Of a stretch of 31,294 nt of DNA, positions 304 through 31,294 are shown piece by piece (within the stretch, counting starts at the first letter, position 1; the number at the start of each line of letters is the position of its first letter). The stretch comes from Dermatophilaceae bacterium (lineage in GTDB: Bacteria > Actinomycetota > Actinomycetes > Actinomycetales > Dermatophilaceae). The stretch spans positions 1 to 31,294 of the forward strand of contig JBIOUP010000110.1 in the NCBI GenBank assembly GCA_044867305.1, written 5' to 3'. The notes under the pieces were generated by a model that worked only from the letters and a program-made list of their open reading frames with translations, made no database searches and was not told the DNA's origin. The translations under genes and the position numbers were made by a program.

Positions 304-371
304 CCGGCATACAGGCGCACCGTAAGGCGCCGAGGCGTGCCTCAGTGCAGCGAGGCACAGACGCCGATCGC

Positions 372-1208
372 TCAGTACGGCGTGGGGATCCAGTTGAGGG
401 CCAGCTTGGGCTCCGCGTAGTCGCCGGCCTTCTGGCGGCGGGGCAGCTTGACCTGCTGCTCGGGCAGCGGTTCGTACGGTACGACGCTGAGCAGGTGGCT
501 GATGAGGTTGAGCCGCCCTCGCTTCTTGTCGTCGGTCCGGACGAGATACCACGGCGCCCAATCGGTGTCCGTCGCCGCAAACATGGCATCGCGCGCCCGT
601 GAGTAGTCATACCAGCGGCTGTAGCTCTTGAGATCCATGTCGGTGAGCTTCCAGACCTTGCGCGGGTCCGTGATGCGGCCCTGCAGCCGTCGGGTCTGTT
701 CCTCAGGGGTGACCTCGAGCCAGTACTTGATGAGGATGATCCCGTTGTCGATCATCGCCTGCTCCACGGCGGGGACCTGCTGCAGGAATCGCTCGGTCTG
801 CTCGGGCGTGCAGAACCCCATGACCCGCTCGACGCCGGCGCGGTTGTACCAGCTGCGGTCGAAGATGACCACCTCGCCCCCGGAAGGGAACTGCGTGACA
901 TAGCGCTGCACGTACATCTGCGAGCGCTCACGTTCGCTGGGAGCCGGCAGCGCGACCACCCGGAACACCCGCGGGCTCACCCGTTCGGTGATCCGCTTGA
1001 TGGTGCCTCCCTTTCCCGCGGTGTCGCGGCCCTCGAACATGATGCAGACCTTCGCCCCGGTTCGTTTCACCCACTCCTGCATGGCGATGAGCTCGCCCTG
1101 CAGCCTTGCCAACTCGGTCTCGTACTTCTTGCGGCTCAGCTTCGAGGCCGCGTCGGAAGGCTCGGCGGGCTTGGACTTCTGCGTGCTCTTGCTCTTGCTC
1201 TTGCTCAT
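372..1208 (-). CDS. ppk2: Polyphosphate kinase 2 (class I type)
   Basis: Motifs FEGRDTAGKGG (Walker A) and FDRSWYNRAGVERVMGFC. Start placed at ATG 1208 (MSKSKSK); the upstream extension of ORF 372..1688 is not PPK2-like. Confidence 0.93.
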   Translation of the reverse strand: MSKSKSKSTQKSKPAEPSDAASKLSRKKYETELARLQGELIAMQEWVKRTGAKVCIMFEGRDTAGKGGTIKRITERVSPRVFRVVALPAPSERERSQMYVQRYVTQFPSGGEVVIFDRSWYNRAGVERVMGFCTPEQTERFLQQVPAVEQAMIDNGIILIKYWLEVTPEEQTRRLQGRITDPRKVWKLTDMDLKSYSRWYDYSRARDAMFAATDTDWAPWYLVRTDDKKRGRLNLISHLLSVVPYEPLPEQQVKLPRRQKAGDYAEPKLALNWIPTPY

Positions 1209-1422
1209 GGCGGGCCTTCCGGTGGTGGCGCGGCGGCGGTTGATACCACGCAACGGTATGCCGTGCCCCACGGCAGACCGTGCATCATCGCCGAGCTGGT
1301 GTCGGCCGTCCTGGGTCAGCCCGGCAGTGGCCGGGCGGTCGTGCCGGTAGGCGAGGGTAGTCTCAGCGAGAGCCGGCGTGCGCCGCAGGCGCGGCCACCA
1401 GCAACGCGATGAAGGAGCCACC

Positions 1423-1749
1423 ATGTCGGATACGGGGTTCGAACCCATCTCCAGCACCCTTGATGTCGGTGGCCGAGCGGGCGGCCGCCAGCGGGGTGTC
1501 GCCGGACGGGCGCCCAGGCACGGTCTTTGCCGACAGCGGCGCAACCCCCGCCGGACCGCGGGGTCGAGAGCCTGGAAGATCTGCCTGATGGCGTCGCGGT
1601 CCCTCAGCCACCCGGTCTGGAAGGAGGGGATGGCGCCGCGGATCGAGGAAACCGAGAAGACCGACTTGGTCACCCAGGACCTGCTCATCGAGATCGTCGG
1701 CGCGCTTGAAGAAGCGCGCGGGATGTGGCAGGCGCAGAACAGCGGCTAG
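1423..1749 (+). pseudogene. dps: Dps (DNA starvation/stationary-phase protection protein) pseudogene with internal deletion, frameshifts and a 90-bp inversion
   Basis: RBS AAGGAG then ATG 1423 (MSDTGFEPISSTLD). A second frame from 1469 gives VAERAAASGVSPDGRPGTVFADSG. The minus strand of 1543-1632 gives IPSFQTGWLRDRDAIRQIFQALDPAVRR. The C-terminus is RIEETEKTDLVTQDLLIEIVGALEEARGMWQAQ. These pieces follow the order of actinobacterial Dps; the HW-containing ferroxidase helix region is missing. Confidence 0.78.
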
Positions 1750-1758
1750 CCGCGCGGC

Positions 1759-2493
1759 ATGTCGGTCACCGAGCACGAGCCCGGCGCGACCGGGCCGGCC
1801 ACCGGCCGCCCACGACTGCCGCGGCGAGTGGCTGTCGCGATGGTGTCGCCGGACAGCTACGGGTTGGTGCTGCTGCTGATCCTGTGCACGTACGTCTTCT
1901 CAGTCTCGGCCAAGGGCGCCTGGGCCAGCTCGATGGTCATCGTCGTTCAGGTCGCCGCCGTCTGGGTGGTCCTGCGCGTCTCTCGGGCCTCGCGTTCGGT
2001 CCGCGCCACAGCCGGAGCCTTCCTCGCCCTGTCGCTCGTCGCCGCCGCGGCCAACTTGTTCGTCGGCGACCAGAACTGGGCCGAGCGGTTCATCCTCGTG
2101 GTGAGCGCACTGCTCTACATGGTTGCCCCGATCTCGATCATGCGCCATCTCATCAGTCGCCGAGAGGTCGACATGAAGACGGTGCTCGGCGTCATCGATG
2201 CCTATCTGCTGGTCGGGATGATGTTCGCCTTCCTGTACCACCTGCTCGGCGTCACCCAGGTGACACCCTTCTTCGGGCCGGGCGTGGAGGAGGCGTTGCC
2301 GCAGGACCTGTTCTTCTCGTTCACCACGTTGACCACGACGGGGTATGGCAACCTCGTGCCACAAGGAAACCCGGGCCAGAGCTTTGCGGTTGTCGAGATG
2401 CTCATCGGACAGCTGTTCTTGGTGACCGTGCTGGCCAAGGTCGTCGGGGCCTACCGCCGGGACAACGGTCCGACTGCCAGCGCGGACGAGTAG
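1759..2493 (+). CDS. Potassium channel family protein (Ion_trans_2 pore domain with N-terminal TM helices)
   Basis: Hydrophobic helices plus the pore signature LFFSFTTLTTTGYGNLVP followed by the M2 helix (EMLIGQLFL). Confidence 0.85.
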   Translation: MSVTEHEPGATGPATGRPRLPRRVAVAMVSPDSYGLVLLLILCTYVFSVSAKGAWASSMVIVVQVAAVWVVLRVSRASRSVRATAGAFLALSLVAAAANLFVGDQNWAERFILVVSALLYMVAPISIMRHLISRREVDMKTVLGVIDAYLLVGMMFAFLYHLLGVTQVTPFFGPGVEEALPQDLFFSFTTLTTTGYGNLVPQGNPGQSFAVVEMLIGQLFLVTVLAKVVGAYRRDNGPTASADE

Positions 2494-2504
2494 GAGTTGC
2501 GGTT

Positions 2505-3017: not shown

Positions 3018-3091
3018 GCGATGCCGGTTGGGGGCACCCCCTTGGGTCATGCCAACCGCGCGTCACGGCACCCGGTTAGCACGACGGAGCA

Positions 3092-3817
3092 CTACGCGAC
3101 GATGATCGAGACCAGTGCCGCCACGACGACCGTGTTGAGCAGCCACCCCAGCGAGCTGTGCAGGGTGACCACCCGGCGCATCGCACTCGTCGTGACCAGC
3201 GTGTCGGTGGTCCCGAAGGTCGCCGAGCAGCCCATCGCCATGTACAGGTAGTCGGAGAACACCGGCTCTTCGGATCCTGAGAAGGCCAGCCCGCCTCGCT
3301 CGATGTCATGCCGGGCATAGTGCAAGGCAAAACTGAAGGCAATGAGCAGCAGCGCGATCAGGACTGTCAGACCGGCGAAGGCGAGAACCAGCGTCGTCGT
3401 CGCTGCCCGATCCACCAGGACCGACACCATCGAGCCAAACGCTCCCACGGCGATGACCACGGCCCATCCCTGACCTCCACCGCCGGCCAGCAGCCAACGT
3501 CGAACCGGTGACGTCGGCAGCGGGCTGCCCGCCACTCGCCGCACGAGCTCGGCACGACCGCAGCCCAAGAAGGCTCGCAAGCCCAGGGCCAAGTAGGTGA
3601 GCGCGAAGGCGTTCCAGGCAATGAGCTGAGCCCCGAGCCCGACCTCCAGCCTGACCTCGCCGTCCGACGTGCCAAGCTCGACGCTGATCAAGCCAGCCAG
3701 CAGGATCACCAGACCGAAGCCCATCGACAACAGCGCCCCCACCCCGACCGAGGTCCACAGCCGGAAGACATCCGAGCAAGCTCGAGGTATGCCGGCACGC
3801 TTGCTTGACTCGACCAC
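3092..3817 (-). CDS. DUF1345 family membrane protein
   Basis: C-terminal YARH...LAFSGSEEPVFSDYLY...TFGTTDT.VTTSAMRRVVTLHS.LGWLLNT pattern. Start uncertain (GTG 3817 chosen; the ORF extends to 3853). Confidence 0.78.
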   Translation of the reverse strand: MVESSKRAGIPRACSDVFRLWTSVGVGALLSMGFGLVILLAGLISVELGTSDGEVRLEVGLGAQLIAWNAFALTYLALGLRAFLGCGRAELVRRVAGSPLPTSPVRRWLLAGGGGQGWAVVIAVGAFGSMVSVLVDRAATTTLVLAFAGLTVLIALLLIAFSFALHYARHDIERGGLAFSGSEEPVFSDYLYMAMGCSATFGTTDTLVTTSAMRRVVTLHSSLGWLLNTVVVAALVSIIVA

Positions 3818-3894: not shown

Positions 3895-4992
3895 ATGACC
3901 AACACGCCCACCCTTGCTGACCCGTTCACCGTGCCGACGAGGTACTGGCATCTCCTCGACGACGGCCGGATCCAGTGCGACGTGTGCCCGCGCGCGTGCC
4001 GGCTGCACGAGGGTCAGCGCGGGTTGTGCTTCGTGCGGGCCCGTGTCGACGACATGGTGGTGCTGACCTCCTACGGGCGCTCGAGCGGGTTCTGCGTGGA
4101 CCCGGTGGAGAAGAAGCCGCTCAACCACTTCCTGCCCGGCTCGCCCGTGCTGTCATTCGGCACGGCGGGGTGCAACCTGGCCTGCAAGTTCTGCCAGAAC
4201 TGGGATATCAGCAAGTCCCGCGAGACCGACACCCTCGCCGACCGGGCCTCCCCGGCAACCCTGGCTGCCCTGGCCGAGTCGCTGGGCTGCCGCAGCATCG
4301 CGTTCACCTACAACGACCCGGTCATCTTCTGGGAGTATGCCGCCGACGTCGCCGACGCATGCCGAGCACGGGGCATCAAGGCGGTCGCAGTAACCGCGGG
4401 GTACATGTGCCCCCAGCCCAGGGCGGAGCTCTACCGGCACATGGATGCCGCGAACGTCGACCTCAAGGCATTCACCGAGCAGTTCTACCGCCAGGTCTGC
4501 GCGGCTCGGCTGGCCGACGTCCTGGACACGTTGCAGTTCCTGCGACATGAGACGGACGTGTGGTTCGAGATCACCACCTTGCTCATCCCTGGTCGCAACG
4601 ACAGCGACGAAGAGCTCGACGCCGAGACCACGTGGATCGCCAGTGAGCTCGGGCCCGACGTGCCGCTGCACTTCACGGCGTTCCATCCCGACTACAAGAT
4701 GCTCGACGTCCCACGGACGCCGGGCGCGACCTTGACTAGGGCCCGCCGGATCGCTCTGGCGAACGGGCTGCGTTACGTCTACACGGGCAACGTGCACGAC
4801 CGCGACGGCGGCACGACCTTCTGCCCGGGGTGCGCACAGGCCGTGGTGGTCCGGGACTGGTACGAGCTGCTCACCTATGCGCTGGATGGGCAGGGCTGCT
4901 GCACCGCCTGTGGCACCCAGCTGCCCGGTGTGTATGCCGGCCCGCCCGGGCGCTGGGGCCGGCGCCGGATACCCGTCTTCGTCGATCGCTGA
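3895..4992 (+). CDS. amrS: AmmeMemoRadiSam system radical SAM enzyme
   Basis: N-terminal CDVCPRAC...C cluster, DPVEKKPLNHF, radical SAM motif GCNLACKFCQNWDIS, FTYNDP, and C-terminal YVYTGNV..CPGC...CTACG. Confidence 0.92.
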   Translation: MTNTPTLADPFTVPTRYWHLLDDGRIQCDVCPRACRLHEGQRGLCFVRARVDDMVVLTSYGRSSGFCVDPVEKKPLNHFLPGSPVLSFGTAGCNLACKFCQNWDISKSRETDTLADRASPATLAALAESLGCRSIAFTYNDPVIFWEYAADVADACRARGIKAVAVTAGYMCPQPRAELYRHMDAANVDLKAFTEQFYRQVCAARLADVLDTLQFLRHETDVWFEITTLLIPGRNDSDEELDAETTWIASELGPDVPLHFTAFHPDYKMLDVPRTPGATLTRARRIALANGLRYVYTGNVHDRDGGTTFCPGCAQAVVVRDWYELLTYALDGQGCCTACGTQLPGVYAGPPGRWGRRRIPVFVDR

Positions 4993-5789
4993 TGCGGCGG
5001 ACACGTCCGGCTGCGGTCGCCGGCCAGTTCTACCCGTCGGACCCAGCGAAGCTGGCCGCCTCCGTTGACTCGCTGCTCGCCGCAGCCGGCCCGGCCGACC
5101 ACACCGGCGCGGTCGTCGCGCTTGTCGTTCCGCACGCCGGTTTCGAGTATTCAGGGCCGGTCGCGGCGAGCGGCTACGCCTGCCTGGCTCACCTGCCAGT
5201 CGCGCCGCGGCGCATCATGGTGCTCGGGCCGGCGCACTTCGTCGATCTGGACGGCCTGGCCGTCCCGACGGTCACCGTGATGGAGACCCCGCTGGGCCCG
5301 GCCGTCCTCGACACGCCCGCGTTCCGAAGCCTGGTGGACGCGGGTCTGGGCGCCTTCTCGGATGCCGCGCACGCCACGGAGCACTCCATCGAGGTGCAGC
5401 TGCCCTTCCTGACCCGGATTCTCGGCGCAGCCGCCAGCTACGTGCCGCTCGCCGTTGGTCGGACCGAGCCGCGGCACGTCGCCGATGCCCTCGACGTGCT
5501 CGGCGGCGATCTCGTCGTGGTGAGCACCGACCTGTCGCACTACCTGGACCAGGCGAGCGCGCAGCGTCGGGACCGGCATACCGCCGAGTCAGTCCTCGCC
5601 CGCCGGGCTGAGCGGATTGGGCCGTGGGACGCTTGCGGACACTACGCGCTGCGTGGCCTGCTGGAGTGGGCCCTCCGCCACGACCACCAGGTCGAGCTCG
5701 TGGACCTGCGCACCTCGGCGGACACCGCGGGAAGCCCAAAGCGGGTGGTCGGCTACGGCGCCTTCGTGCTCACGTCGGCATCCGCCTGA
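4992..5789 (+). CDS. amrB: AmmeMemoRadiSam system protein B (MEMO1 family)
   Basis: TGATG overlap with amrS. Motifs RPAAVAGQFYP, VPHAG, GPAH, EHSIEVQLPFL, STDLSHY, CG and VVGYGA. Confidence 0.92.
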   Translation: MRRTRPAAVAGQFYPSDPAKLAASVDSLLAAAGPADHTGAVVALVVPHAGFEYSGPVAASGYACLAHLPVAPRRIMVLGPAHFVDLDGLAVPTVTVMETPLGPAVLDTPAFRSLVDAGLGAFSDAAHATEHSIEVQLPFLTRILGAAASYVPLAVGRTEPRHVADALDVLGGDLVVVSTDLSHYLDQASAQRRDRHTAESVLARRAERIGPWDACGHYALRGLLEWALRHDHQVELVDLRTSADTAGSPKRVVGYGAFVLTSASA

Positions 5790-5792: not shown

Positions 5793-6593
5793 CTACGCCG
5801 CCGGCACCGGCACCAGAAGGGCCTGCACACCAAGCTCCTCGATGCGCCCTGTGGTGTCCTCGCTCAGCTCGTCGTCGGACACGATGAGGTCCAGCGCCTC
5901 CAGCTCGGCCACCTGGAACTTGGTGAACGTGCCGTACTTCGTGCTGTCGGCCAGCAGTGCGCAGGTCGAGCTGGCCCGCATGACCGCCCGCTTGAGCTGC
6001 ACCTTGTCCAGCGACGGCGCACTCACGCCACGGGCGATGCTCCAGGCGCCCGTGCTCATGAACTGGATGTCGATGTTGACGGCGGCCAACGTGGCCGCTG
6101 CCAAGGCGCCGGCGCTCGAGCCGCTGTCCGGGTCGACCGTGCCGCCGGTGTGGATCACCTCGATCGCCGGGTGCTCGAACAGGCTGGTCACCACGTAGAA
6201 GTCGTTGGTAACCACGGTGAGGTCCGCGCGGTCGGCGATGAACGGGACCATCGACTGACACGTGGTGCCGGCGTCCAGGTACACCACCATGCCGTCCTCG
6301 ACCAGCTCGGCGGCCCGCTGCGCGATCGCTCGCTTACGTGGTCGCTCCAGCACCTCGCGGCGGGGTCGCTGTGAGGGAGGCTGCTGAGCCCGGCTCTCGG
6401 CCAGGCGCACCCCACCTTGAACCGAGACCAGCGCTCCGTCCGCCTCCAACGCCGCAATGTCTCTGCGCACGGTCATGTGCGAGACACCCAGGTATGCCGT
6501 GAGGTTGCGAGTACTCACGACCCCCTCCCGGCGCAGCAGCTCCAGGAGCATCTGATGGCGCTGTTCGGGTATGAGAGGTGCAGCGGAGTTCAC
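5793..6593 (-). CDS. DeoR/GlpR family transcriptional regulator
   Basis: HTH region (EQRHQMLLELL...VSHMTVRRD) plus the DeoR C-terminal domain (KRAIAQRAAELV, YLDAGTT, VVTND, LLADSTKYG). GTG 6593 has a GGAG RBS. Confidence 0.92.
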   Translation of the reverse strand: MNSAAPLIPEQRHQMLLELLRREGVVSTRNLTAYLGVSHMTVRRDIAALEADGALVSVQGGVRLAESRAQQPPSQRPRREVLERPRKRAIAQRAAELVEDGMVVYLDAGTTCQSMVPFIADRADLTVVTNDFYVVTSLFEHPAIEVIHTGGTVDPDSGSSAGALAAATLAAVNIDIQFMSTGAWSIARGVSAPSLDKVQLKRAVMRASSTCALLADSTKYGTFTKFQVAELEALDLIVSDDELSEDTTGRIEELGVQALLVPVPAA

Positions 6594-7339: not shown

Positions 7340-7361
7340 GTATGCCGGGCACCCGGCATAC
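7340..7361. repeat. Perfect hairpin built from two inverted CGGCATAC octamers
   Basis: GTATGCCGGG-CA-CCCGGCATAC lies in the eda-MFS intergenic space. Confidence 0.85.
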
Positions 7362-8702: not shown

Positions 8703-9298
8703 GTATGCCGGGCACGCCCGCCGCGCAAGGGCCGATCGCGTTCTTCGTGATCGGCCCGGCCGGCTCGGGCAAGTCCACGGTGAGCCGGTTCCTCGCCCAG
8801 CGCTACCGCACGGCATACCTGGACAAGGACGCCCTCGCAACCGCCTTCACCGAGGCGCTGCTGTCGGCCACCGGCAACGACCCGCACGAGCGGGACAACA
8901 ACGCCTACTACCAGCAGCACATCCTCCCAATGGAGTACTGCACCCTGCTGCGCCTCTGCGGGGACAACCTGCGGGTCGGCACATCGGTCGTGCTGGACGC
9001 GCCCTTCGGCCGGTTCCTCTCCGACGAGCGCTTCCTGCTCGACGCGGCGCAGCGGCATGGCTGGCCCTCCCACGCCAAGGTCGTTGTCGCCCATGTGCGC
9101 ACCGACGCCGGTGCCGTGCTGCGTCGGCTGCGCGAACGGGGACTGCAGCGCGACGGCTGGAAGATCGAGCACTGGGCCGAATTCTGGCCTGGCGCAACGG
9201 CGCAGCCCTGCTCGTGGCTCGGCGCCAGCCACGTCACCGTCGACAACTCCGGGGCCGAGCCGGACATCGGTGAGCTCGAGTCTGCGGGGTTTCCATAA
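8699..9298 (+). CDS. P-loop kinase-like protein (AAA_33 / gluconate-shikimate kinase fold)
   Basis: ATGA overlap with the MFS stop. Walker A GPAGSGKS, YLDKD, VVLDAPF and a lid-like RRLRERGLQRD. Confidence 0.8.
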   Translation: MSMPGTPAAQGPIAFFVIGPAGSGKSTVSRFLAQRYRTAYLDKDALATAFTEALLSATGNDPHERDNNAYYQQHILPMEYCTLLRLCGDNLRVGTSVVLDAPFGRFLSDERFLLDAAQRHGWPSHAKVVVAHVRTDAGAVLRRLRERGLQRDGWKIEHWAEFWPGATAQPCSWLGASHVTVDNSGAEPDIGELESAGFP

Positions 9299-11325: not shown

Positions 11326-12423
11326 ATGGCCGGTCCTACGACGAGTCGCGTTCCGTGGACGACGATTGCCCCGGTTCCCGCACTGATCGCGTTGGCGCTT
11401 ACCTGGGGCCGGGAGCTGGGCCCGGTCGTCGTGCTGGTCGTGGCCGTCCTGCTCGGAGCATCGGTGCTCGCAGCCGTGCACCATGCCGAGGTCGTGGCTC
11501 ACCGGGTCGGCGAGCCGTTCGGCTCGCTGCTGCTCGCCGTTGCGGTCACCGTGATCGAGGTCGGCCTCATCGTCACCCTCATGCTGTCCGGCGGCGAGAA
11601 GGCGGCGACGCTGGGCCGCGACACCGTCTTCGCCGCGGTGATGATCACCTGCAACGGCATCCTGGGCCTGTCGATCCTCATCGGCACCAAAGGCAGCGGG
11701 TTCAGCAACTTCAACCCCGAGGGCAGCGGCGGGGCGCTGGCCACCGTCGCCACCGTGGCCACCACCTGCCTGGTGCTGCCCAACTTCACCCTCAACCAGC
11801 CCGGCCCGCAGTTCACCGGCGCCCAGCTGGCGTTCGCGGCGGTCGCCTCGTTGGCGATCTACGCCCTCTTCGTCGTCACCCAGACCGTCCGCCACCGCGA
11901 CTTCTTCCTGCCGGTCACCCCCGACGGGCAGGTCATGGACGAGGACGCGCACGCCGAACCGCCGTCGAACCAGTTGGCGATCGCCAGCTTGGTCCTGCTG
12001 GTGGCCTCGCTCGTGGCGGTCGTGGGACTGGCCAAGGTGGAGTCGCCGGCCATCGAGAACGCCGTGAACGCGGCCGGCTTTCCGCAGTCCTTTGTCGGGG
12101 TCGTCATCGCCTTGCTCGTGCTGCTGCCGGAGACCCTGGCGGCCGTGCGAGCGGCGCAGCGTGACCGGGTGCAGATCAGCCTCAACCTCGCCCTCGGATC
12201 GGCCATTGCCAGTGTCGGCCTGACCATCCCAACGCTGGCGATCGCGTCGATCTGGCTGCCCGGACCGTTGGTGCTCGGGCTGGGGGCGACGGAGATCGTG
12301 CTACTGGCGATCACTGTGATCGTCGGGGTCCTGACCGTCGTGCCGGGGCGGGCGACCCGCCTGCAGGGCGGGCTGCACCTGACCATCGCCGCGGCATACA
12401 TCTTCCTGGCGATCAACCCGTGA
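11326..12423 (+). CDS. Ca2+/H+ antiporter (CaCA family, ChaA/y4hA-like)
   Basis: Alpha-1 repeat AVHHAEVVAHRVGEPFGSLLLAVAVTVIEV and alpha-2 repeat LLVLLPETLAA...SLNLALGSAIASVGLTIP. Confidence 0.9.
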   Translation: MAGPTTSRVPWTTIAPVPALIALALTWGRELGPVVVLVVAVLLGASVLAAVHHAEVVAHRVGEPFGSLLLAVAVTVIEVGLIVTLMLSGGEKAATLGRDTVFAAVMITCNGILGLSILIGTKGSGFSNFNPEGSGGALATVATVATTCLVLPNFTLNQPGPQFTGAQLAFAAVASLAIYALFVVTQTVRHRDFFLPVTPDGQVMDEDAHAEPPSNQLAIASLVLLVASLVAVVGLAKVESPAIENAVNAAGFPQSFVGVVIALLVLLPETLAAVRAAQRDRVQISLNLALGSAIASVGLTIPTLAIASIWLPGPLVLGLGATEIVLLAITVIVGVLTVVPGRATRLQGGLHLTIAAAYIFLAINP

Positions 12424-15261: not shown

Positions 15262-15651
15262 ATGAGCGAGCTGAGCTACCCAGAGGACCTGCGCTACACC
15301 ACCGACCACGAGTGGGTGCGAATCGGTGCGGACGGGACGGCTCGGATCGGCATCACTGCCTACGCTCAGAACGCCCTCGGCGACGTGGTGTACGTGTCCT
15401 TGCCCCAGGTCGGCCAGGCCGTCGTGGCCGGGGAGTCCTGCGGAGAAGTGGAGTCCACCAAGTCGGTGAGCGATGTGTACGCCCCGCTCGACGGCGAGGT
15501 AACCGCCGCCAACGAGGGCCTGGACTCGACCCCCGAGCTGGTCAACAGCGACCCCTATGGCGAGGGATGGATGTTCGAGATGTCCGTCGCGGACAGCGCC
15601 GAGCTGGACGGCCTGCTGGACGCCGCGGCATACCGCGAGACGCTGGGCTGA
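15262..15651 (+). CDS. gcvH: Glycine cleavage system H protein
   Basis: DLRYTTDHEW, GITAYAQNALGDVVYV, lipoyl-Lys motif VESTKSVSD and VNSDPYGEGW. RBS AAGGAG. Confidence 0.96.
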   Translation: MSELSYPEDLRYTTDHEWVRIGADGTARIGITAYAQNALGDVVYVSLPQVGQAVVAGESCGEVESTKSVSDVYAPLDGEVTAANEGLDSTPELVNSDPYGEGWMFEMSVADSAELDGLLDAAAYRETLG

Positions 15652-21520: not shown

Positions 21521-24500
21521 TCAGGCGGCGTCGCCCCCCACGAGGCTCACCCGTGACCCCGCCGCGGTCTTGGTGACATGCAGCTGGTTTGGGATCCGGG
21601 CGCGCAGGTCTGCCACGTGGCTGACCACACCCACCGCGCGGCCGCCCTCGCGCAGTCCGTCCAGGACATCGAGGACCTGCTCCAGGCTGTCTTCGTCCAA
21701 GGACCCGAACCCCTCGTCGATGAACAACGTCTGCAGGTCGAACCCGCCGGCCTCTTCACGCACCCCGTCGGCCAGTGCGAGCGCCAGCGCCAATGACGCG
21801 ACAAACGACTCGCCGCCCGAGAGCGTCGCGGTGTCGCGAGCCTGCCCGGTCCAGAGGTCCTCGACCATCAGACCGAGACCGCTGCGTCGCCCGCCGGCAA
21901 CCGGAGCATCGGAGTGGCGCAGCCGGTACCTGCCGTCGCCCATCGCCGCCAGCCGTTCGTTGGCCAGCTCGACGACCCGCTCCAGCCGGGCCGCCAACAC
22001 ATACGCGGACAGTCGCATCCGCAGAGTGTTGTCCGGTCCGAGGCCGCCCGCCGTATCGGCCAGCCGTGCGATGGCGGTGTGTCGGTCGGACAGCTCGGCG
22101 ACCCGGTGCGCGTGCTCGGCCACCAGCACGCGTAGCTGGGTGAGGTCGCGGTCGGACTGCTCGGCGAGGGTTGACGTGCGCTCGGTGAGCTGGCGGGTCC
22201 GCCGGGCATGCGCCAGCTCCTCCTCCAGGGCGGCGAGGTCGGTCTCCTCGGCACGCAACGCCTGCGCGACCTCGGGGTCGGCGAGCACCGTCTGCGCCTG
22301 GACCCGCTCCCGCTCGGCCTGCCTGAGCAGGCGCTCGTGGCTCGCCAGGGTGTCCTGCGCAACGAAGGCCGCCCTGGCCCCGGCAACGGAGTCGAACCCG
22401 TTGTCCGCCAGTCGATACGACACCGCCCGGGTGGTGGCAGACTCATGCCGCGTGGCCTCGGCGCGGGCTTTGCTCGCCTCGAGCAGCTCTGCCACGGCCA
22501 CCGTGACTTCGGTATGCCGGGTCGGGGCGGCACCATGGTCGGCAGACGGCGAGCCGGTCGCACACGGGCATCCGTCGGTATGCCGGCGCCGCCGCTCACT
22601 CAGGTCCTGCTCGGTCCGTTCCGCCTCGGCTCGCATCGCATCGAGCCGCCCGCTCGCCTCCTGCATCGCGCGCTGGGCCTGATCCTGGCGCTCGCGGACG
22701 GACATCAGCTCGTCGACGACCTCGTCGTGGTGGGCCTCCAGCGCAGCGAGCTGGTCTGCGTGGGCCTGCGCGATACCGAGCCGATCCTGGGCGGCTGCCA
22801 GGTCGGCGGCGAGCGCCGCAGCCTCTCGATCGAGCACTCCCGCGTGCTCGCCGAGGGCCAGGACCGCTCCCTCGCTTGCCGCGACGTCGCCCTGAGCCGC
22901 CTCGAGGAGGGCGCGGCGAGCCGTCCACTCCGCCTCGGCGGCCGCGACAGCGTCGTCCGGCACTGCCGCAGCCGAGTCGGCGGGGCTCGGGTGTCGGGCG
23001 GAGCCGCAGACCGGGCACGGTTGCCCGTCGACCAGCTCGGCAGCGAGCCGAGCCGCCAAGGCGTCGAGCTGTGCTTGGCGCATGTCCAGCCAGCGAGCAT
23101 GGGCGACCCGGGCCGCGTCGTCGGCTGCGCCGGCCCGTCCCCTGGCGTCGGAGAGCTGGGCAAGGCGGGCGTCCAGCGTGGTGCGCAGCCGCAGGAGGCC
23201 GAGGACGTGGTCGACATCCCGCAGGGCTTGGGGCACCACGGCAGCTGCCGCCGCGGCCGTGCGCCGCCGTTCCGCGAGCTCGGCCGACACCGCGAGCAGC
23301 CGCTCGGCGTCGGCCTCGACAGCGGCGAGGTTCTGCGCAGCAACGGCCGTCACCTGCTGCTGGGCGCCAACGCGGCGCCGAGCCTGTCCCAGAGCCTGGT
23401 CCAACGCCGCAACCTCGGCGAGTCTGGCGTCGAAGGTGGAGAGGACGCCGGCCAGCTTCTCTGCGGCGGCTGCGTCCATGACGTCCAGACCCGGCCCAAG
23501 CTCGCCGACTCGCTCGGATGCCGCATTTGCTCGGTCCCGCGCGGCCGAAGTCCTCGCTGCTGCGTCGGCGAGGGCACGCAGGTCGCCCGCGACGCAGGCC
23601 GCCCGTCGCGCGAGCGCGACCCGCTCGCCGAGCGCGTTCAGCTCGTCCTCACGGGCGGCCAGGTCGGCAAGGACCGCCCCGGCCTGCTGAGCCTTTTGCC
23701 GGCATACCAGCTGACGGGCTGCCCAGTCGCGCTCGCGGAGCCGGTCGCGCTCGCGTGCCTCGGCGGCGTCGCGCTCGGCGAGCGCGGCAGCGGCAACCCC
23801 GCGGACCCGGCCGAGCACCGTGGCCACTGCACCCTCGAGCTCGCGGTGCGACACGTCTGCCCATGCCGCCACTCCAGCGGACAGCTCTGGTGGCAGCCTT
23901 GCCAGGACGTCATCGACCCTGGTCAGCTGCATCGCCAGCGCCGCCTGCGTCTCGGCCAGACGCACCGCACCGGCGCGGCGCTGCTGGATTAGCCAGTCCT
24001 CGACGTCGGTGAACCGCGACACGTCGAACAGTCGTTCCAGCAGCTCGCGTCGCGACTCCGGCGAAGCTCGCAGGAACGCCGCGAAGTCGCCCTGAGGCAG
24101 CAGCACGACTTTGACGAACTGCTCCAAACCGATGCCCAGGACGTCCTTGACGAGCTCGCCGACCTCGTCGGCCCGGTGCGACAGCGCCTCCCACTGCCCG
24201 CCCACCCGCTCGGTTAGCAGCACCGAAGCCGGCACGGTCGTCTCGCCGGTGCCTCTGCGCTTGGGCCGGCGGAACTCGGGCGAGCGGACGATGCACAGGC
24301 GCCGACCGACCGCGGTGAACTCGAGCTCGACCCGGGGGGCCGCACCGTGGCTGGCGTGGTCGCTGCGCAGGGAACGCCCGGCTGGGCGCGCACCCGGCAC
24401 AGCGGCATAGAGCGCAAAGCAGATAGCGTCGAGCAGGCTGGTCTTGCCGGCCCCGGTTGGTCCGTGGATGAGGAAGATGCCGGCTGACGCCAGCGCGTCG

Positions 24501-24565: not shown

Positions 24566-25737
24566 GCCACGCCTTCGTCGGGCACCGCGCCCGCCTCGTC
24601 GCCGCGAAGGCCGCGCGCGACCCGCGACTGCTCGACCGCCTCGGCCAGCACCGCCCGCTCCTGCGCCGTTGCCGGGGTGCCTGCGCGCACGTGGGCCAGG
24701 AAGTCACAGCACACGTCCAGCTCTGGGCGAGCGGGCATCGCGCCGGCCGAGTATGCCGTGCAGCTCGGGATGCGTTGGCTCGGCTGGAACTCGAGCTTGA
24801 GGGTGTGTGGAAACCGCCGGCGCAGCCGGTCCATCGCCCCCAACGGCCGCAGCGGGTCGGTGAGCACGACGTGACACCAAGCCTGCTCGGCGTCCGCGAG
24901 GGTGCGGTCGGCAAGCAACGCTTCCAGGTCGCCACGGAGGACGGCGAGTGGCCTGGGCACCGGGGCATCGACCGGCGCGCACGCGACGCCGCCGGACGCG
25001 TCCAGGTTGACCAGCCAGCTGCCCTTGACGTGGTCGGCCTCCCCGAACGACATGGCGAGAGGGGACCCGCTGTAGCGGACCGCCGCGGTCACCGGCTGGC
25101 GTCGGTGCAGATGGCCGAGGGCCACGTAGTCCGCACCGTCGAACAGGCTCGCCGGCACGACCGCCACGCCACCAACGGAGATGTCGCGCTCGGACTCGCA
25201 CCCGACCGCGCCGGCCACGAAAGCGTGCGCCATGATCACCAACCGTCCGCCGCGCTGGCGGTGCTCAGCGCGGATCGCTGCGACGGCTGCCTGCAGCACG
25301 GCGCGGTGGCTGACCTCGTCGGCGTCGAAAGCGGGTGCCGCCACGGCTGGCTCGAGGTAGGGGATCGGGTATACGGCAACATCGCCGATGACTACCGGCT
25401 GGCCCACCGCGGACACCCTAGAGCAGATGTGCAGCCCCGCGCGGGACAGGAGTCTGTCGGCGAACCCCAACCGGATCGCGGAGTCGTGGTTGCCGCTGGA
25501 CATGACGACCTGCGCTCCGGCGTCGATGAGCCGGGTCACCCCTTCGGACAGCAGCGCGACGGTGTCTGGCGCGGGCAGCGCCCGGTCGTAGACATCTCCC
25601 GAGACGAGCACCGCATCGAGCCGCTCGGACCGCACGACCTCGACGAGGTGGTCGAGGAACGCGGCTTGGGCATCGAGCATCCCCACCTGGTGGAACGACC
25701 GGCCCAGGTGCCAGTCGGAGGTGTGGAGCAAGCGCAC
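24562..25737 (-). CDS. sbcD: SbcD (Mre11-like) nuclease subunit
   Basis: HTSDWHLGR, SGDVYD, SGNHDS, MAHAFV, DYVALGHLH and YSGSP. Overlaps the sbcC start. Confidence 0.96.
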   Translation of the reverse strand: MRLLHTSDWHLGRSFHQVGMLDAQAAFLDHLVEVVRSERLDAVLVSGDVYDRALPAPDTVALLSEGVTRLIDAGAQVVMSSGNHDSAIRLGFADRLLSRAGLHICSRVSAVGQPVVIGDVAVYPIPYLEPAVAAPAFDADEVSHRAVLQAAVAAIRAEHRQRGGRLVIMAHAFVAGAVGCESERDISVGGVAVVPASLFDGADYVALGHLHRRQPVTAAVRYSGSPLAMSFGEADHVKGSWLVNLDASGGVACAPVDAPVPRPLAVLRGDLEALLADRTLADAEQAWCHVVLTDPLRPLGAMDRLRRRFPHTLKLEFQPSQRIPSCTAYSAGAMPARPELDVCCDFLAHVRAGTPATAQERAVLAEAVEQSRVARGLRGDEAGAVPDEGVA

Positions 25738-25874: not shown

Positions 25875-25972
25875 GGTATCACATCGACCCGGGCGAGGAA
25901 AGCGGCCGTGCGTAGTTCGGCCACGCCCCGGCGACCGTCGCGAAGGGTGAGCGAACGGCATACCCTCGCTGC

Positions 25973-27457
25973 ATGGGCAAGGACATCGAAGCGGTCACCT
26001 TCACGAGGGAGCAGCGCCAGCGCTACCGCGAGAAGGTCACCTTGTGCCTGGACGTCTTCGCCCGGATGCTCGCGTTCAGCCACTTCGAGTTCGACAAGCC
26101 GATGACCGGCATGGAGATCGAGCTCAACCTCGTCGGACGCGACTACCGCCCGCGGATGGACAACGCCCAGGTGCTGCGTCGCATCGAGGACCCGGAGTAC
26201 CAGACCGAGCTGGGGCGCTACAACATCGAGTTCAACGTCAGCCCGCGTCAACTGCTCGGGGACACCGCCTTCGAGATGGAACGTGAACTGCGTGCCTCGC
26301 TCAACGAGGCCGAACGACGCAGCGCCGAGCTCGGCACACACATCATGATGATCGGCATCCTGCCCACGGTCACCCCGGGGCACTTCGAGGGCGAGTGGAT
26401 GAGCGCCAACGCTCGCTACCAAGCGCTCAACGACGCCGTACTCGCGGCTCGGGGCGAGGACATCTTCCTCGACATCGAAGGCCCCTCCGGCGAACGGCTG
26501 GCCCAGTATGCCGACTCGCTCGCACCCGAGTCCGCGTGCACCTCGATGCAGCTGCACCTTCAGGTCGCGCCCGGAGAGTTCGCCGACCACTGGAACGGCG
26601 CCCAGGCCCTAGCCGGACCCCAGGTGGCCCTCGCCGCCAACTCACCGTTCTTCTACGGCCGCCAGCTGTGGGCCGAGACGCGCATCGTGCTGTTCACCCA
26701 GGCCGCCGATACCCGCTCGGTGGAGCTGAAGAACCAAGGGGTGCGCCCGCGCGTGTTCTTCGGCGACCGGTGGATCACGTCGATCTTCGACCTGTTCGAG
26801 GAGAACGTGCGCTTCTTCCCCGCACTGCTGCCCGAGCTGTCCGACGAGGACCCGGTGGCCGTGCTCGAGACCGGCGGCGTGCCGGCGCTGGCCGAGATGC
26901 GTCTGCACAACGGCACCATCTACCGCTGGAACCGGCCGATCTACGACATCGTCGGCGGGACACCGCATCTGCGCGTGGAGAACCGGGTGCTGCCTGCCGG
27001 GCCGACGATCGTCGACGCCATGGCCAACGCGCTTTTCTACTACGGGGCGTTGCGGGCGCTGGCGCACGAGGACCGGCCAGTGTGGACCCGGATGAGCTTC
27101 GGTGTGGCGCAAGAGAACTTCCTGGCTGCTGCGCGCGACGGCATCGAGGCCCGGCTGTTCTGGCCGCGCCTGGGTGACCTGCCGGCCACCGAGCTGGTGC
27201 TGCGACACCTGCTACCCCTGGCTCACGAAGGGCTGCGGCAATGGGGAGTGTCCGACGCCGTGCGCGAGCACTACCTGGGGGTGATCGAGGGCCGTTGCTT
27301 GTCCTCACACAACGGCGCCAGCTGGCAGATCGAGACGGTGCATCGGCTGCAGGCCCGCGGGGTCGACCGGGTCGAAGCGTTGCGCCGGATGCTCGAACAG
27401 TATGCCGAGAACATGCACGCCAACGTGCCGGTGCACTCCTGGGAGCTCTCGCCGTGA
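25973..27457 (+). CDS. Glutamate--cysteine ligase family 2 (GCS2) protein
   Basis: GMEIELNL, QTELGRYNIEFN, IGILPT, ESACTSMQLHLQV, ALAANSPF, LHNGTIYRWNRP and LRVENRVLPAGPT. Confidence 0.9.
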   Translation: MGKDIEAVTFTREQRQRYREKVTLCLDVFARMLAFSHFEFDKPMTGMEIELNLVGRDYRPRMDNAQVLRRIEDPEYQTELGRYNIEFNVSPRQLLGDTAFEMERELRASLNEAERRSAELGTHIMMIGILPTVTPGHFEGEWMSANARYQALNDAVLAARGEDIFLDIEGPSGERLAQYADSLAPESACTSMQLHLQVAPGEFADHWNGAQALAGPQVALAANSPFFYGRQLWAETRIVLFTQAADTRSVELKNQGVRPRVFFGDRWITSIFDLFEENVRFFPALLPELSDEDPVAVLETGGVPALAEMRLHNGTIYRWNRPIYDIVGGTPHLRVENRVLPAGPTIVDAMANALFYYGALRALAHEDRPVWTRMSFGVAQENFLAAARDGIEARLFWPRLGDLPATELVLRHLLPLAHEGLRQWGVSDAVREHYLGVIEGRCLSSHNGASWQIETVHRLQARGVDRVEALRRMLEQYAENMHANVPVHSWELSP

Positions 27458-27471
27458 CCGCGCGCAACCGC

Positions 27472-28109: not shown

Positions 28110-28138
28110 CCCCTGCGGCGGCGTGCAAGGCTGTCGGC

Positions 28139-29032
28139 ATGCGCCTGCCGTTCCGACTGCTCAACGTCTTCGCCATCGAGGGCGACCCGTTCTCCGGCAA
28201 CCCGCTCGCCGTTTTCGACGCCCCGGCTGAGCCGCTCGATGCCGCCGTGATGCAACAGGTGGCCCGCCAGTTCAACCTTTCCGAGTCGACGTTCCTCACC
28301 CTCGCAGAAGCGGGGGGCGACCTTGCGGGCATCGACGCCGCGGTCCGGATCTTCACGCCGACCATCGAGATGCCGTTCGCCGGGCACCCAACGCTCGGCA
28401 CGGCATACGTGGTAGGGGAGCGCACGGGGCGCGACGCGGTCGTGCTTCGTATGCCGGCGGGTGACATCCCGGTTCGCGCTGACGCAAGCGGGTGGACCCT
28501 CACGGCCAACCCGGCGACGGTCCGTCCGGATGACACCGACGGTGCCGAGCTGGCCGCGATGCTGGGGGTGGACCCGACAGACGTGGCCGGGCCCGGAGTC
28601 TGGGTCGAGGCTGGCGTCGACCAGCTGCTCGTGCCGTTGGTGTCGCCCGACGCGGTCCGGCGGGCCGTCCCCGACGCCGGCCTGCTGCGCCGGCACGCGA
28701 TGTCGCCTCGGGGGGAAGCGCTGTGTCTTGCCTGGGCACGCGCCGGTCTGGACACCGTCGAGGCGCGGTTCTTCTTCAGCCAGGGCACGTCGGTTGTCGA
28801 GGACCCGGCGACCGGCTCGGCCGCGGCGAACCTGGGCAGCCTGCTCGCCCACGAGGGCGCCCGCTCGACCCGGATGGTCATCTCCCAGGGCGCCGCAGTG
28901 CTGCGTCCCTCGTTGCTCACCGTCGCGATCGACGCGAACGGCGTGGTCACCGTCGGCGGCCGAGTCACCCAGATTGGTGCCGGCAGCGTCGACGTCGACC
29001 TACCAAGCGCCGATTCGGTTGCTGCAGACTGA
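28139..29032 (+). CDS. PhzF family (DAP-epimerase-like) isomerase
   Basis: NVF...PFSGNPLAV, QFNLSESTF (catalytic Glu), RIFTP..EMPFAGHPTLGTA and EDPATGSAA. Confidence 0.92.
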   Translation: MRLPFRLLNVFAIEGDPFSGNPLAVFDAPAEPLDAAVMQQVARQFNLSESTFLTLAEAGGDLAGIDAAVRIFTPTIEMPFAGHPTLGTAYVVGERTGRDAVVLRMPAGDIPVRADASGWTLTANPATVRPDDTDGAELAAMLGVDPTDVAGPGVWVEAGVDQLLVPLVSPDAVRRAVPDAGLLRRHAMSPRGEALCLAWARAGLDTVEARFFFSQGTSVVEDPATGSAAANLGSLLAHEGARSTRMVISQGAAVLRPSLLTVAIDANGVVTVGGRVTQIGAGSVDVDLPSADSVAAD

Positions 29033-29565: not shown

Positions 29566-29578
29566 GTCGGGTCGCCGC

Positions 29579-30343
29579 TCACCTGCTGCGGCGAACGACC
29601 TCGAAGCACAGGACCGCGGCGGCCGCAGAAACGTTGAGGGACTCCACCTCGCCGGCCATGGGGATCGAGACCCAGGTCTGCACCTGGAAAGCGACGTCGT
29701 ACCCCAGACCTGCGGTCTCGCTGCCGAGCAGGTATGCCGTGTCGCGCGGCAGGTCGGTGTCGAACAGGGTCAGCGGGGCAGCGGCATCCAGCCCCACGAC
29801 ATGAAAGCCATTGTCGCGCAAGGTCTGCACCGCCTCGGTCGCAGTCGCAGTCTTGAGGATGGGCGCGCGGAAGGCGACGCCCGCGGAGGCTTTGACGACG
29901 AGCGGGTCGAGCGAGGCGACCCCGCGGCGCGGCACGACGATGCCGCTGAACCCCGCAGCGGTGGCCGTTCGCAGGGTCATGCCGACGTTCGCCGGAGTGG
30001 TGATCCCGTCGAGAACGAGGACCGACCCGGACAGCCCCTCGGCCAGGGCGCGATCGAGTGAGCGCATCCTCGGCGCCACGACGTCGGCGCACACCCCCTG
30101 GTCCTGTTTGCCGTTGCCGGCCAGCTTCTTGACCCGCTCGGCGGAAACCCGATGCAGCGCAACGCCCCGTCGCTGCGCGGCGGCGACGATCTCGTGGACA
30201 TGCGGTCCGCGCGCCTGCTCGGCGACCAGGACCTTGTCGATGTCCAGGGCGTTGTTCTGCAGCGCCTCGAGCACCGGGTTACGCCCGTACACCGTGATGA
30301 ACCGGTCCTTGGGCGACACCGGCGCCCTGGTGCGCTCGGACAT
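29579..30343 (-). CDS. TrmH/SpoU family RNA 2'-O-methyltransferase
   Basis: YGRNPVLEAL, DQGVCA, LDGITTPANVG...RTA, GSETAGL and IPMAGEVESLNVSAA. CAGGAT lies 6 nt upstream of ATG 30343. Confidence 0.92.
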   Translation of the reverse strand: MSERTRAPVSPKDRFITVYGRNPVLEALQNNALDIDKVLVAEQARGPHVHEIVAAAQRRGVALHRVSAERVKKLAGNGKQDQGVCADVVAPRMRSLDRALAEGLSGSVLVLDGITTPANVGMTLRTATAAGFSGIVVPRRGVASLDPLVVKASAGVAFRAPILKTATATEAVQTLRDNGFHVVGLDAAAPLTLFDTDLPRDTAYLLGSETAGLGYDVAFQVQTWVSIPMAGEVESLNVSAAAAVLCFEVVRRSR

Positions 30344-30527
30344 GCCACCATCCTGCCCTTGTTCAGGCCCCGTTCGCCCGAAGGGCGCCGAGCGTCTGAT
30401 CACCTGGCGGCCAGGGGCACTTTCACCGCTTCTGAGCCAGCGCAGCGGCCCCGGCCCTCGCGACGGACTGCGGGACCAACGCCCGGGGGGCTGACAACCG
30501 AGGCGAGGTACCGTGGGAAGTGCCCGG

Positions 30528-30541
30528 TGCAAGCGCTTTAT
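30528..30541. promoter_or_regulatory. Candidate LacI-family operator upstream of the GH13 gene
   Basis: TGCAAGCGCTTTAT has an AAGCGCTT palindromic core and sits just downstream of TACCGT (30509-30514). Confidence 0.5.
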
Positions 30542-30587
30542 GCGCAAACCGCCGGAGGTCCGAGGGAAGGAACCGCCAGCTGTGCCG

Positions 30588-31294
30588 ATGCCGCGTGCCC
30601 CCCTTCAGGGCACCTTTCCGCGGCCCGAAGTCTGCGCCGACTCATGTGGTCAGGCCCTGGAACGCGCCGCGGCGGTCCTGGGTGGCTGCTCGACTGAGCG
30701 GCAGGAAGCGTTCGAGCTGCGCCTGCGCCGCTGGTGGGACGAGCTGACCTGCGGACTCACCGAGCTCTACGACGAGCGGGCAGCAGTCGTCGCGGACCGG
30801 CTCGTGCAGCTGGCGGCGAGGGCATACCGCGACCGTGATCCGGACCTGCACCGGCTCGACACCCGGCGCCTGCTCGAGCCGGACTGGCTGCAGTCGCCGC
30901 GCATGTTCGGCTACGCGGCCTACGCCGACCGGTTCGCGACGGACCTCTGCGGCGTCCAACAACGCATCGGCTACCTCAAGGAGCTGGGCGTCACCTACCT
31001 GCACCTCATGCCGCTGTTGCGCTCCCGAGACGGAGACGACGACGGCGGGTATGCCGTGTCGGACTTCCGGGAGGTCCGCCCCGACCTGGGTACCGTCGAC
31101 CACCTCCGCGACCTGGCGAAGCTGTTGCGCGACAACGGGATCAGCCTGGTGCTGGACCTGGTGCTCAACCACGTGGCTCGGGAGCACGAGTGGGCCCGGC
31201 GCGCCCGAGCCGGCGAACCGGCATACCGCGACTACTTCTACATCTACCCCGACCGCACCGAGCCGGACCGGTTCGAGGCCAGCCTGCCCGAGGT
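30588..31294 (+). CDS. Amylosucrase-like GH13 alpha-amylase family protein, N-terminal part; runs off the right edge
   Basis: Not in the ORF track. Manual translation gives PDWLQSPRMFGYAAYADRF, YLKELGVTYLHLMPLL, DDGGYAVSDFREVRPDLGT and LVLDLVLNHVAREHEWA. The start may be GTG 30582. Confidence 0.88.
   Translation, partial: MPRAPLQGTFPRPEVCADSCGQALERAAAVLGGCSTERQEAFELRLRRWWDELTCGLTELYDERAAVVADRLVQLAARAYRDRDPDLHRLDTRRLLEPDWLQSPRMFGYAAYADRFATDLCGVQQRIGYLKELGVTYLHLMPLLRSRDGDDDGGYAVSDFREVRPDLGTVDHLRDLAKLLRDNGISLVLDLVLNHVAREHEWARRARAGEPAYRDYFYIYPDRTEPDRFEASLPE

Follow-up and report, generated by a model that had tools for sequence, protein, structure and literature searches.

A hyper-abundant octamer of the Dermatophilaceae, spaced separately on each DNA strand, as a possible self-DNA word

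Genomic signature words have been worked out in only a few groups of bacteria, namely the Neisseriaceae, the Pasteurellaceae and, in part, the cyanobacteria, and where they are understood they show how bacteria tell their own DNA from foreign DNA. The subject of this study is the octamer CGGCATAC, which recurs throughout a 31,294-nt stretch of a Dermatophilaceae genome (contig JBIOUP010000110.1 of assembly GCA_044867305.1; the whole stretch is referred to as the window). The DNA uptake sequences (DUS) of Neisseriaceae (GCCGTCTGAA and its dialects) and the uptake signal sequences (USS) of Pasteurellaceae (core AAGTGCGGT) share with this word a density of about one copy per kb in equal orientations. 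Like CGGCATAC, they lie in genes in all frames against codon preference, shift the tripeptide usage and are conserved at orthologous positions. The likeness extends to one-letter dialects in relatives, inverted pairs that form hairpins, far fewer copies in phage and the lack of a replichore bias. Unlike DUS and USS, CGGCATAC is found in Actinomycetota, is shorter (8 nt) and has almost no flanking consensus. A further difference is that DUS has the receptor ComP in Neisseria, whereas the competence genes tested here do not separate word-rich from word-free genomes.

HIP1 (GCGATCGC), the highly iterated palindrome of cyanobacteria, is likewise a hyper-abundant octamer, with an enrichment of the 15- to 300-fold class, sites conserved beyond codon effects and variant spellings in some lineages, and its function is still unsettled after long study (PMC5861425). 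It differs in being palindromic, so that it cannot show strand alternation, and in its link to a CGATCG methyltransferase, whereas no common methyltransferase family was found here; one preprint also links HIP1 to methylation-dependent transformation in a cyanobacterium (bioRxiv 10.1101/2024.09.10.611283). Chi sites of RecBCD and AddAB resemble CGGCATAC as exact asymmetric words (5-8 nt) and act as a self-DNA signal. A moving enzyme reads Chi from a single strand; orientation therefore matters, and a further copy downstream is redundant. The FtsK-orienting polar sequences (KOPS), the SpoIIIE recognition sequences (SRS) and the TraB recognition sequences (TRS) of Streptomyces, which load FtsK, SpoIIIE and TraB, are asymmetric and directionally read words of 8 bp as well; KOPS and SRS are strongly polar towards dif, and CGGCATAC is not. 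Full-text literature searches returned no description of CGGCATAC or of any uptake-like word in Actinomycetota, in agreement with the first-pass annotation of the window, which knew of none, and it is missing from a general survey of octamers that are abundant in bacteria (PMC2843746).

The window is one contig (C110) of a genome that was assembled from soil metagenomes (G000; 2.98 Mb in 349 contigs, 80% complete). It contains 34 exact matches to CGGCATAC, 15 on the plus and 19 on the minus strand, at precisely the 34 positions listed in the first-pass annotation, while dinucleotide-preserving shuffles gave an expectation of 0.80 +/- 0.99 copies (maximum 4). As had been noted, all but one of the 35 GGCATAC heptamers carry the 5' C, the lone exception lying at 30821; the GC content given as 71% was measured as ~0.69, which leaves the result unaffected. 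The enrichment is not limited to the window. Across G000, 3,072 copies were counted (1553 on the plus and 1519 on the minus strand, one per 970 bp), which makes CGGCATAC the top over-represented 8-mer of this genome at 29 times the zero-order expectation and bears out the roughly 30-fold excess proposed originally. The unit is a discrete 8-mer, as 3,072 of the 3,394 GCATAC hexamers in the genome lie within the full octamer. Flanking preferences are weak (A or C at -1 and C at +8, at most 0.28 bit per position), and the word is non-palindromic, its reverse complement being GTATGCCG. The one-mismatch forms are not enriched genome-wide; their sum is ~0.8 of expectation, like that of other 8-mers of the class, with the lowest values for CGGTATAC (0.24) and CGGCTTAC (0.21), and the depletion around CGGCATAC is not stronger than the class median. 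The Illumina P7 adapter includes CGGCATAC, but contamination does not account for the copies because the extended 16-mer adapter string is absent from the genome and the sequences next to the copies do not match the adapter. A dispersed repeat of the repetitive extragenic palindrome or miniature inverted-repeat transposable element type was dismissed in view of the weak flanks and of a density of 0.97 copies per kb in genes vs 1.23 per kb in the uncalled remainder.

The relation of the word to coding sequence was analyzed in 2,172 genes, which were called with a simple codon-likelihood caller and cover 76% of G000; this set is incomplete, so that no firm conclusions are drawn about intergenic DNA. 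The called genes hold 2,211 copies, and 162 +/- 13 remained after synonymous codon shuffles within genes, so that the enrichment persists when the codon content is kept. It amounts to 8-20 fold in each of the six combinations of frame and orientation, with the copies divided evenly between sense (1111) and antisense (1100). The word occupies 35-77% of the sites that the amino acid sequence permits; in total 2,211 of 3,713 compatible sites are occupied vs 162 of 3,713 expected from the shuffles, an odds ratio of ~32. Rare codons are used to this end: 72% of Val-Cys-Arg tripeptides are spelled GTA-TGC-CGN, while GTA makes up 2.4% of valine codons, and the word takes up 42% of the ATA codons and 37% of the TAT codons. 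The signal thus acts on DNA and not on protein, as the first-pass annotation had concluded. The proteins themselves are nevertheless reshaped by it. Tripeptides that can encode CGGCATAC are 2-3 times over-represented, and in G000 RHT outnumbers THR (193 vs 73), VCR outnumbers RCV (145 vs 38) and GMP outnumbers PMG (225 vs 53). A parallel is the co-evolution of uptake sequences and proteomes, as it is outlined in PMC2817400. A simple mutation-selection-drift model gives a rough estimate of 2Ns ~3.5 per site for the force, which is weak but acts everywhere.

The strand on which copies lie follows a local rule. Replichore-type polarity was not seen, the plus and minus counts per contig being under-dispersed and more balanced than binomial (chi2 16.3 on 43 degrees of freedom), and an apparent polarity in two other genomes (G077 and G135) was rejected on counts of 34+/33- and 33+/28-. 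The absence of strand polarity that had been claimed for the window therefore stands for replichores and gene strands, but not locally, where alternation is strong: 67.4% of neighbouring copies in G000 lie on opposite strands. Pairs on the same strand start at 0.32 of expectation for distances under 250 bp and do not attain 1.0 before ~1.25 kb, whereas opposite-strand pairs are found at 1.1-1.3 of expectation. Coding opportunity was controlled for by relating the occupancy of amino-acid-compatible sites to the distance of the nearest other copy. Occupancy was 26% with a same-strand copy within 100 bp, 48% at 250-500 bp, 65% at 750-1,000 bp and 76-78% beyond 1.5 kb; relative to the nearest opposite-strand copy it was flat or fell slightly, from 57-67% to 44-53%. 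Species-specific copies have nearer same-strand neighbours than copies shared between species (732 vs 1,064 bp, p = 0.03). Alternation was replicated in a genome of another genus (G050; 66%, p = 0.0015) and in G005 (68.5%) and G017 (64%), and it was not visible in the lower-density genomes G077 and G135 or, in small samples, in the dialect genomes G091 and G099. Interference between copies is accordingly per strand. Local strand alternation is not a described property of DUS, USS or HIP1, and the interference of same-orientation but not of opposite copies over ~1 kb is unlike the USS of Haemophilus influenzae (PMC1939737).

The distribution of the word was followed in 18 species of the genus, all of which carry 340-1,500 copies per Mb (both strands), and in a sample of 121 genomes from 73 genera of the family (Dermatophilaceae as delimited in GTDB). 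The distribution within the family is bimodal, with densities that exceed 130 copies per Mb in 67 genomes from 40 genera and stay under 90 in the other 54, and the state agrees among genus mates with the exception of one genus. In 12 other families of the order the word is at control level, and enrichment was absent from every one of another 298 genomes, drawn from ~69 families of the class outside this one, a sample that includes five unpublished genomes used for background counts only (G154, G177, G179, G183 and G190). Of the ~70 families of the class that were sampled, CGGCATAC is thus confined to a single one, and the original view of a lineage-specific, genome-wide signal with a density comparable to DUS, USS and HIP1 is supported.

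Many of the word-poor genomes spell the word differently by one letter, and in its main form or as a dialect it occurs in most genera of the family. The dialect CGGCATCC occurs 120 times per 100 kb in G091, whose congener G145 carries both CGGCATAC and CGGCATCC, and the dialect CGGCGTAC occurs 57 times per 60 kb in G099. The ratio of the general form CGGCRTMC to its control is 3-5.4 in dialect genomes and 1-2.2 in truly word-free ones, and the central T:A pair is constant across dialects (CGGC-R-T-M-C). No other hyper-abundant 8-mer was detected in 40-60 kb from each of seven word-poor genera (G031, G038, G040, G044, G046, G060 and G082), one of which, G031, carries CGGCRTMC dialect forms. An apparent second word in G077, GAAGCACT, was rejected as part of an array of clustered regularly interspaced short palindromic repeats (C1:111773-115253), which has ~57 repeats with a 61-bp period and a repeat that starts GGAAGCACTCCCGCGGACGCGGGA. 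On a ComEC tree of 61 genomes, main word, dialect and no word are interleaved, and well-supported branches force at least 11 state changes, a number that is soft for a single-gene tree with some long branches. The ComEC of G104, G035, G082, G093 and G139 has a very long branch (~3 changes per site) and an odd composition; these five may be divergent orthologues, a paralogue or poorly delimited open reading frames. The lytic Tetrasphaera phage TJE1 (NC_019930; 49 kb, ~57% GC) has two copies of CGGCATAC and 7 and 4 copies of the two dialects. Its CGGCRTMC count of 17 vs 7.2 expected is a mild excess, far below the ~50 that a host-like density would give.

Copies are conserved between species beyond the background. 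In a syntenic region of 20 kb, 13 congeners with 74-85% identity keep 31-86% of the window copies vs 12-31% of random 8-mers; several copies, among them the one at 19591 in gcvP, persist in every congener. Over 199 kb aligned between G000 and G005 (83.8% identity), the two genomes have 205 copies in common, and G005 has 44 and G000 has 42 of its own, so that 82% are kept vs 29.6% for random 8-mers; for G000 and G017 the counts are 162 shared, and 33 and 32 specific (83% vs 32%). Where the orthologue of a species-specific copy has one mismatch, it differs mostly at word positions 5 (A>G 14, A>C 10) and 7 (A>C 13, A>G 5), which are the positions that vary between dialects.

The force behind the word must hence act on DNA, be specific for all eight bases, treat the two orientations independently and saturate over ~1-1.5 kb; it is blind to genes and to the direction of replication, and it can be lost or retuned by one letter. 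These properties are best matched by a reader that, in the course of DNA exchange, tracks along one strand or in a single direction. We therefore propose, tentatively and as a reading that may well not hold, that CGGCATAC is a direction-read self-DNA tag in DNA exchange, with natural transformation and single-strand import as its likeliest setting. In its favour are a density that matches DUS and USS, the presence of ComEC and of a ComEA-like gene, and a lytic phage (TJE1) in which the word stays far below the density of a host. A weak and pervasive force at the DNA level would keep ~1 copy per 2 kb on each strand, every orientation for itself, and a copy would be favoured where no other of the same orientation lies within ~1-1.5 kb. 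The reader would belong to the machinery that handles DNA during exchange between relatives, and could meet the word on a single strand entering through ComEC. DNA bearing the word would preferentially be taken in, kept or recombined, and word-bearing alleles would replace word-less ones by the combination of molecular drive and selection that applies to DUS and USS. Another copy in the same orientation on one tract would be superfluous, since either one-strand import or a Chi-like end resection would make it redundant; both would also allow word-bearing alleles to spread. Abundance, action on DNA, conservation of sites, interference per strand, dialects and confinement to the family are observed, whereas DNA exchange as the candidate force, the reading of a single strand and all that is said here of the reader are inferred. 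The word would work like a self tag of the uptake or Chi type and is assigned to neither family. The lack of enriched one-mismatch forms is compatible with a drive of the uptake type: uptake sequences with one mismatch are ~90-fold less over-represented than perfect ones in Haemophilus and Neisseria (PMC1939737), and such a drop would be invisible on a 29-fold enrichment.

Several results weigh against the proposal of a direction-read tag. Natural transformation has, to our knowledge, not been reported in this family. ComEC is present in 118 of the 121 family genomes, the pilus-type T2SSE ATPases in 120 and the helicase-nuclease subunit AdnA in 119, in each case word-free relatives included, so that none of them tracks the word. 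A ComEA-like gene precedes comEC in all word states, and the HhH DNA-binding domain of ComEA is nearly invariant across word state and dialect; the suggested correlation of the word with ComEA and ComEC is consequently not borne out, and no dedicated receptor tracking the word was found among ComEC, the ComEA HhH domain and the T2SSE ATPases. Alternation is lacking in the dialect genome G099, where 46% of neighbours are opposite (n = 56) at a density of ~1 CGGCGTAC per kb, and compensatory same-strand turnover between G000 and G005 was not seen (6 vs 6 within 800 bp, small numbers). The divergence asymmetry described below is weak (pooled p ~0.02-0.03). Finally, orientation-specific interference is not a known property of uptake sequences, as the orientation of the sequence has no effect on uptake in H. 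influenzae (PMC1939737).

The divergence around shared copies may point to a direction in the action of the word and bears on a Chi-like signal as well. Between G000 and G005, the 3' side of CGGCATAC (on its own strand) is less diverged than the 5' side by 0.010 over 10-600 bp (p = 0.006 in a per-site t test, p = 0.004 with random orientation flips), and the sign agrees in 15 of 19 contigs. The comparison of G000 with G017 gave the same sign at half the size and was not significant. When every interval between copies was used once, those of the type '+...-' diverged by 0.147 and those of the type '-...+' by 0.161 (pooled p = 0.02-0.03). Gene structure does not explain the difference because coding fraction and position within the gene are symmetric around copies. 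As both species pairs share G000, the data only suggest that divergence is directionally asymmetric around the word.

In a Chi-like role, the word would be recognised in single-stranded DNA by a helicase-nuclease as it translocates (AdnAB in most of the genomes), and this enzyme would stop degradation and load RecA at the word, so that each orientation would be needed near any two-ended break or incoming DNA end. The exact asymmetric 8-mer, like that of E. coli Chi, the per-orientation interference with its filling of gaps and the directional asymmetry of divergence all agree with this explanation, and an AdnA/AdnB-like pair is present in G000. We nevertheless consider it unlikely. Known Chi sites are skewed, whereas CGGCATAC shows no leading-strand or other replichore skew at all and greatly exceeds them in enrichment (29-fold) and in site occupancy (35-77% of compatible sites). 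The near-universal AdnA occurs just as much in word-free genomes, phage TJE1 shows no enrichment of CGGCATAC, and no Chi for AdnAB appeared among the titles and abstracts that a literature search listed; we know of none for this universal alternative to RecBCD. The RecC subunit of RecBCD is itself patchy, being present in 37 of 121 family genomes and in only 14 of the 67 word-rich ones. Among the genomes of the ComEC tree it was detected in 19 of the 27 that are word-free, in 7 of the 34 that bear the word and in 0 of 13 dialect genomes; G000 has it (C295:15939-16925) and its congeners G006 and G009 do not. Eleven independent contrasts on the single-gene ComEC tree gave ~5.9 changes in the opposite and 0.6 in the same direction (median sign-test p = 0.06). 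That word-free lineages tend to keep RecBCD is a weaker lead in favour of a Chi-like role; RecBCD is clearly not the reader; perhaps its loss goes along with the word, or perhaps phylogeny accounts for both.

A signal for chromosome maintenance, as proposed for HIP1, appears somewhat less probable still. Here, the word would be the site of a strand-specific housekeeping enzyme (for instance a site-specific topoisomerase I, a nickase that lets repair tell the strands apart or a nucleoid protein) and be selected for its spacing on each strand without any link to DNA exchange. Conservation between species far above controls, which is the argument made for selection on HIP1 (PMC5861425), is in keeping with such a role, as are the regular per-strand spacing that is indifferent to genes and the estimated 2Ns of ~3.5 per site, a selection strength that would suffice. 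The repeated state changes on the ComEC tree and the many healthy relatives that lack any such word make an essential housekeeping function unlikely, and no candidate enzyme was found.

A loading site for a double-stranded DNA translocase of the FtsK or TraB type, through which word-bearing segments would be transferred preferentially in actinomycete-type conjugation, is improbable. Per-orientation redundancy would suit directional pumping. However, each of the 121 genomes, word-rich or word-free, has exactly one FtsK gamma domain, which does not track the word, and no extra gamma-domain translocase was found with the Pfam model, which a TraB with a divergent winged helix could escape. An EccC-like FtsK_SpoIIIE protein was rejected as reader: the second copy separated five genomes, and the separation fails across the 121. 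This second protein of ~1,350 aa with two strong FtsK_SpoIIIE domains (C27:10257-14762 in G000) is present in some genomes of the family, G000, G006 and G074 among them, and absent from others, with no relation to the word.

Still less can be said for a functionless by-product of sequence-specific repair or gene-conversion bias (similar to very-short-patch repair) that turns near-cognates into the word. The one-mismatch neighbours at or slightly below background, lowest for the two forms named above, and the concentration of gains and losses at positions 5 and 7 would be expected from it. The neighbour depletion is, however, not out of the ordinary for the class, local repair does not predict same-strand interference up to 1 kb, and Vsr, on which a repair signal of this type would depend, is sporadic (35 of 121 genomes), does not track the word and was not found in seven word-rich genomes (G000, G006, G033, G034, G036, G041 and G048). 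Least credible is a strand-specific modification target with an epigenetic or self-marking role (type III, type IIG or bacteriophage exclusion-like methyltransferase, or phosphorothioation), for although the site is asymmetric and its central T:A constant in all dialects, restriction targets are normally avoided in genomes rather than enriched, and none of the N6_N4, N6, C5 and D12 methyltransferase families, which also lend no support to the methylation signal considered in the first-pass annotation, is common to three word-rich and absent from two word-free genomes (G136 has only a D12-type enzyme, and G074 lacks the N6 and N6_N4 types).

If the proposal of a direction-read tag were correct, CGGCATAC might be the first self-DNA recognition word of Actinomycetota, with each strand tagged independently for a one-strand or one-direction reader that was repeatedly lost or retuned; this, too, is put forward with reserve. 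It would represent a new class of uptake- or Chi-like signal and imply widespread, unrecognised homologous gene flow in the family. A word of a strength equal to the described ones in high-GC Gram-positive bacteria of soil and sludge would point to unrecognised homologous gene flow or DNA-end processing in Actinomycetota, a case that the independent spacing of each orientation strengthens. The many state changes within one family, together with the dialects, make this group unusually well suited to a search for the reader, whether by comparative genomics or by pull-down. In practice, CGGCATAC is a cheap marker for binning and contamination checks of genomes of the family, and should it promote uptake or recombination, strains that are hard to engineer could become genetically more tractable with its help, as with HIP1 in Synechococcus.

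All copies in the window are listed in Table 1. The inverted pairs fold into stable hairpins (z -2.5 to -3.5) without a T tract, and the hairpin between two genes at 7340..7361 is hence not called terminator-like. Genome-wide, close pairs outside called genes are found 33 times in the order GTATGCCG...CGGCATAC vs 16 times in the reverse order, and a search for the inverted pairs in IMG/VR gave chance matches only. Head-to-tail runs of CGGCATAC outside called genes were observed as well, with three copies at C66:476-499 and two at C92:10199-10214 of G000.

Table 1. Copies of CGGCATAC in the window. Conservation is given as congeners keeping the copy out of congeners aligned, from blastn maps of the syntenic 20 kb.
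Feature	Position	Strand or copies	Match, fold or conservation
CGGCATAC copy	305..312	+	exact match
CGGCATAC copy	1256..1263	-	exact match
CGGCATAC copy	3787..3794	-	exact match
CGGCATAC copy	4335..4342	-	exact match
CGGCATAC copy	4932..4939	-	exact match
CGGCATAC copy	5574..5581	+	exact match
CGGCATAC copy	6492..6499	-	exact match
Inverted pair GTATGCCG-N6-CGGCATAC between two genes	7340..7361	7340(-), 7354(+)	9-bp hairpin, -17.8 kcal/mol, z -2.5
CGGCATAC copy at gene junction	8703..8710	-	exact match
CGGCATAC copy	8811..8818	+	exact match
CGGCATAC copy	10321..10328	+	exact match
CGGCATAC copy	12392..12399	+	kept 2/2
CGGCATAC copy	13018..13025	-	kept 10/11
Inverted pair, 13-nt spacer	13902..13930	13902(-), 13923(+)	hairpin -25.9 kcal/mol, z -3.5; kept 3/6 and 6/6
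CGGCATAC copy	15626..15633	+	kept 8/13, other 5 one base off
CGGCATAC copy	16089..16096	-	kept 10/13
CGGCATAC copy, species-specific	16841..16848	+	kept 0/5
CGGCATAC copy in gcvP	18852..18859	+	kept 11/13
CGGCATAC copy in gcvP	19591..19598	-	kept 13/13
CGGCATAC copy in gcvP	19965..19972	+	kept 11/12
CGGCATAC copy in sbcC-like gene	22512..22519	-	kept 0/2
CGGCATAC copy in sbcC-like gene	22578..22585	-	kept 2/2
CGGCATAC copy in sbcC-like gene	23700..23707	+	kept 1/2
CGGCATAC copy in sbcD-like gene	24751..24758	-	kept 2/9
CGGCATAC copy	25956..25963	+	kept 11/12
CGGCATAC copy	26506..26513	-	kept 1/12
CGGCATAC copy	27400..27407	-	kept 2/11
Convergent pair CGGCATAC-N40-GTATGCCG	28401..28456	28401(+), 28449(-)	folds, z -2.65; each kept 5/9
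CGGCATAC copy	29732..29739	-	kept 10/11
CGGCATAC copy	31049..31056	-	kept 8/9
CGGCATAC copy	31219..31226	+	kept 2/5

Twelve stretches of at least 5 kb in G000 are free of the word; they carry accessory-type genes, show none of the hallmarks of phages or transposons, and may represent islands or contigs that were mis-binned into the metagenome-assembled genome. Such stretches with a slightly lower GC content and a length of 5-8.5 kb were noted on contigs C72, C52 and C333 and at C58:3362-17237 and C13:4593-11808, and their genes encode teichoic-acid-type glycosyl- and glycerophosphotransferases, sulfotransferases, two-component systems, an extracytoplasmic function sigma factor and a sulfatase. 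The annotations of phage TJE1 include three methyltransferases, an ERF recombinase and an exonuclease. Among the housekeeping genes of the window that carry the word, the genes of an sbcD-sbcC-like nuclease pair (21521-25737, minus strand) adjoin that of the glycine-cleavage P protein (18527-21433, plus strand), whose product, GcvP, has its nearest named match in the group in an Ornithinimicrobium metagenome-assembled genome. A PPK2 gene at 372-1688 carries the word as well.

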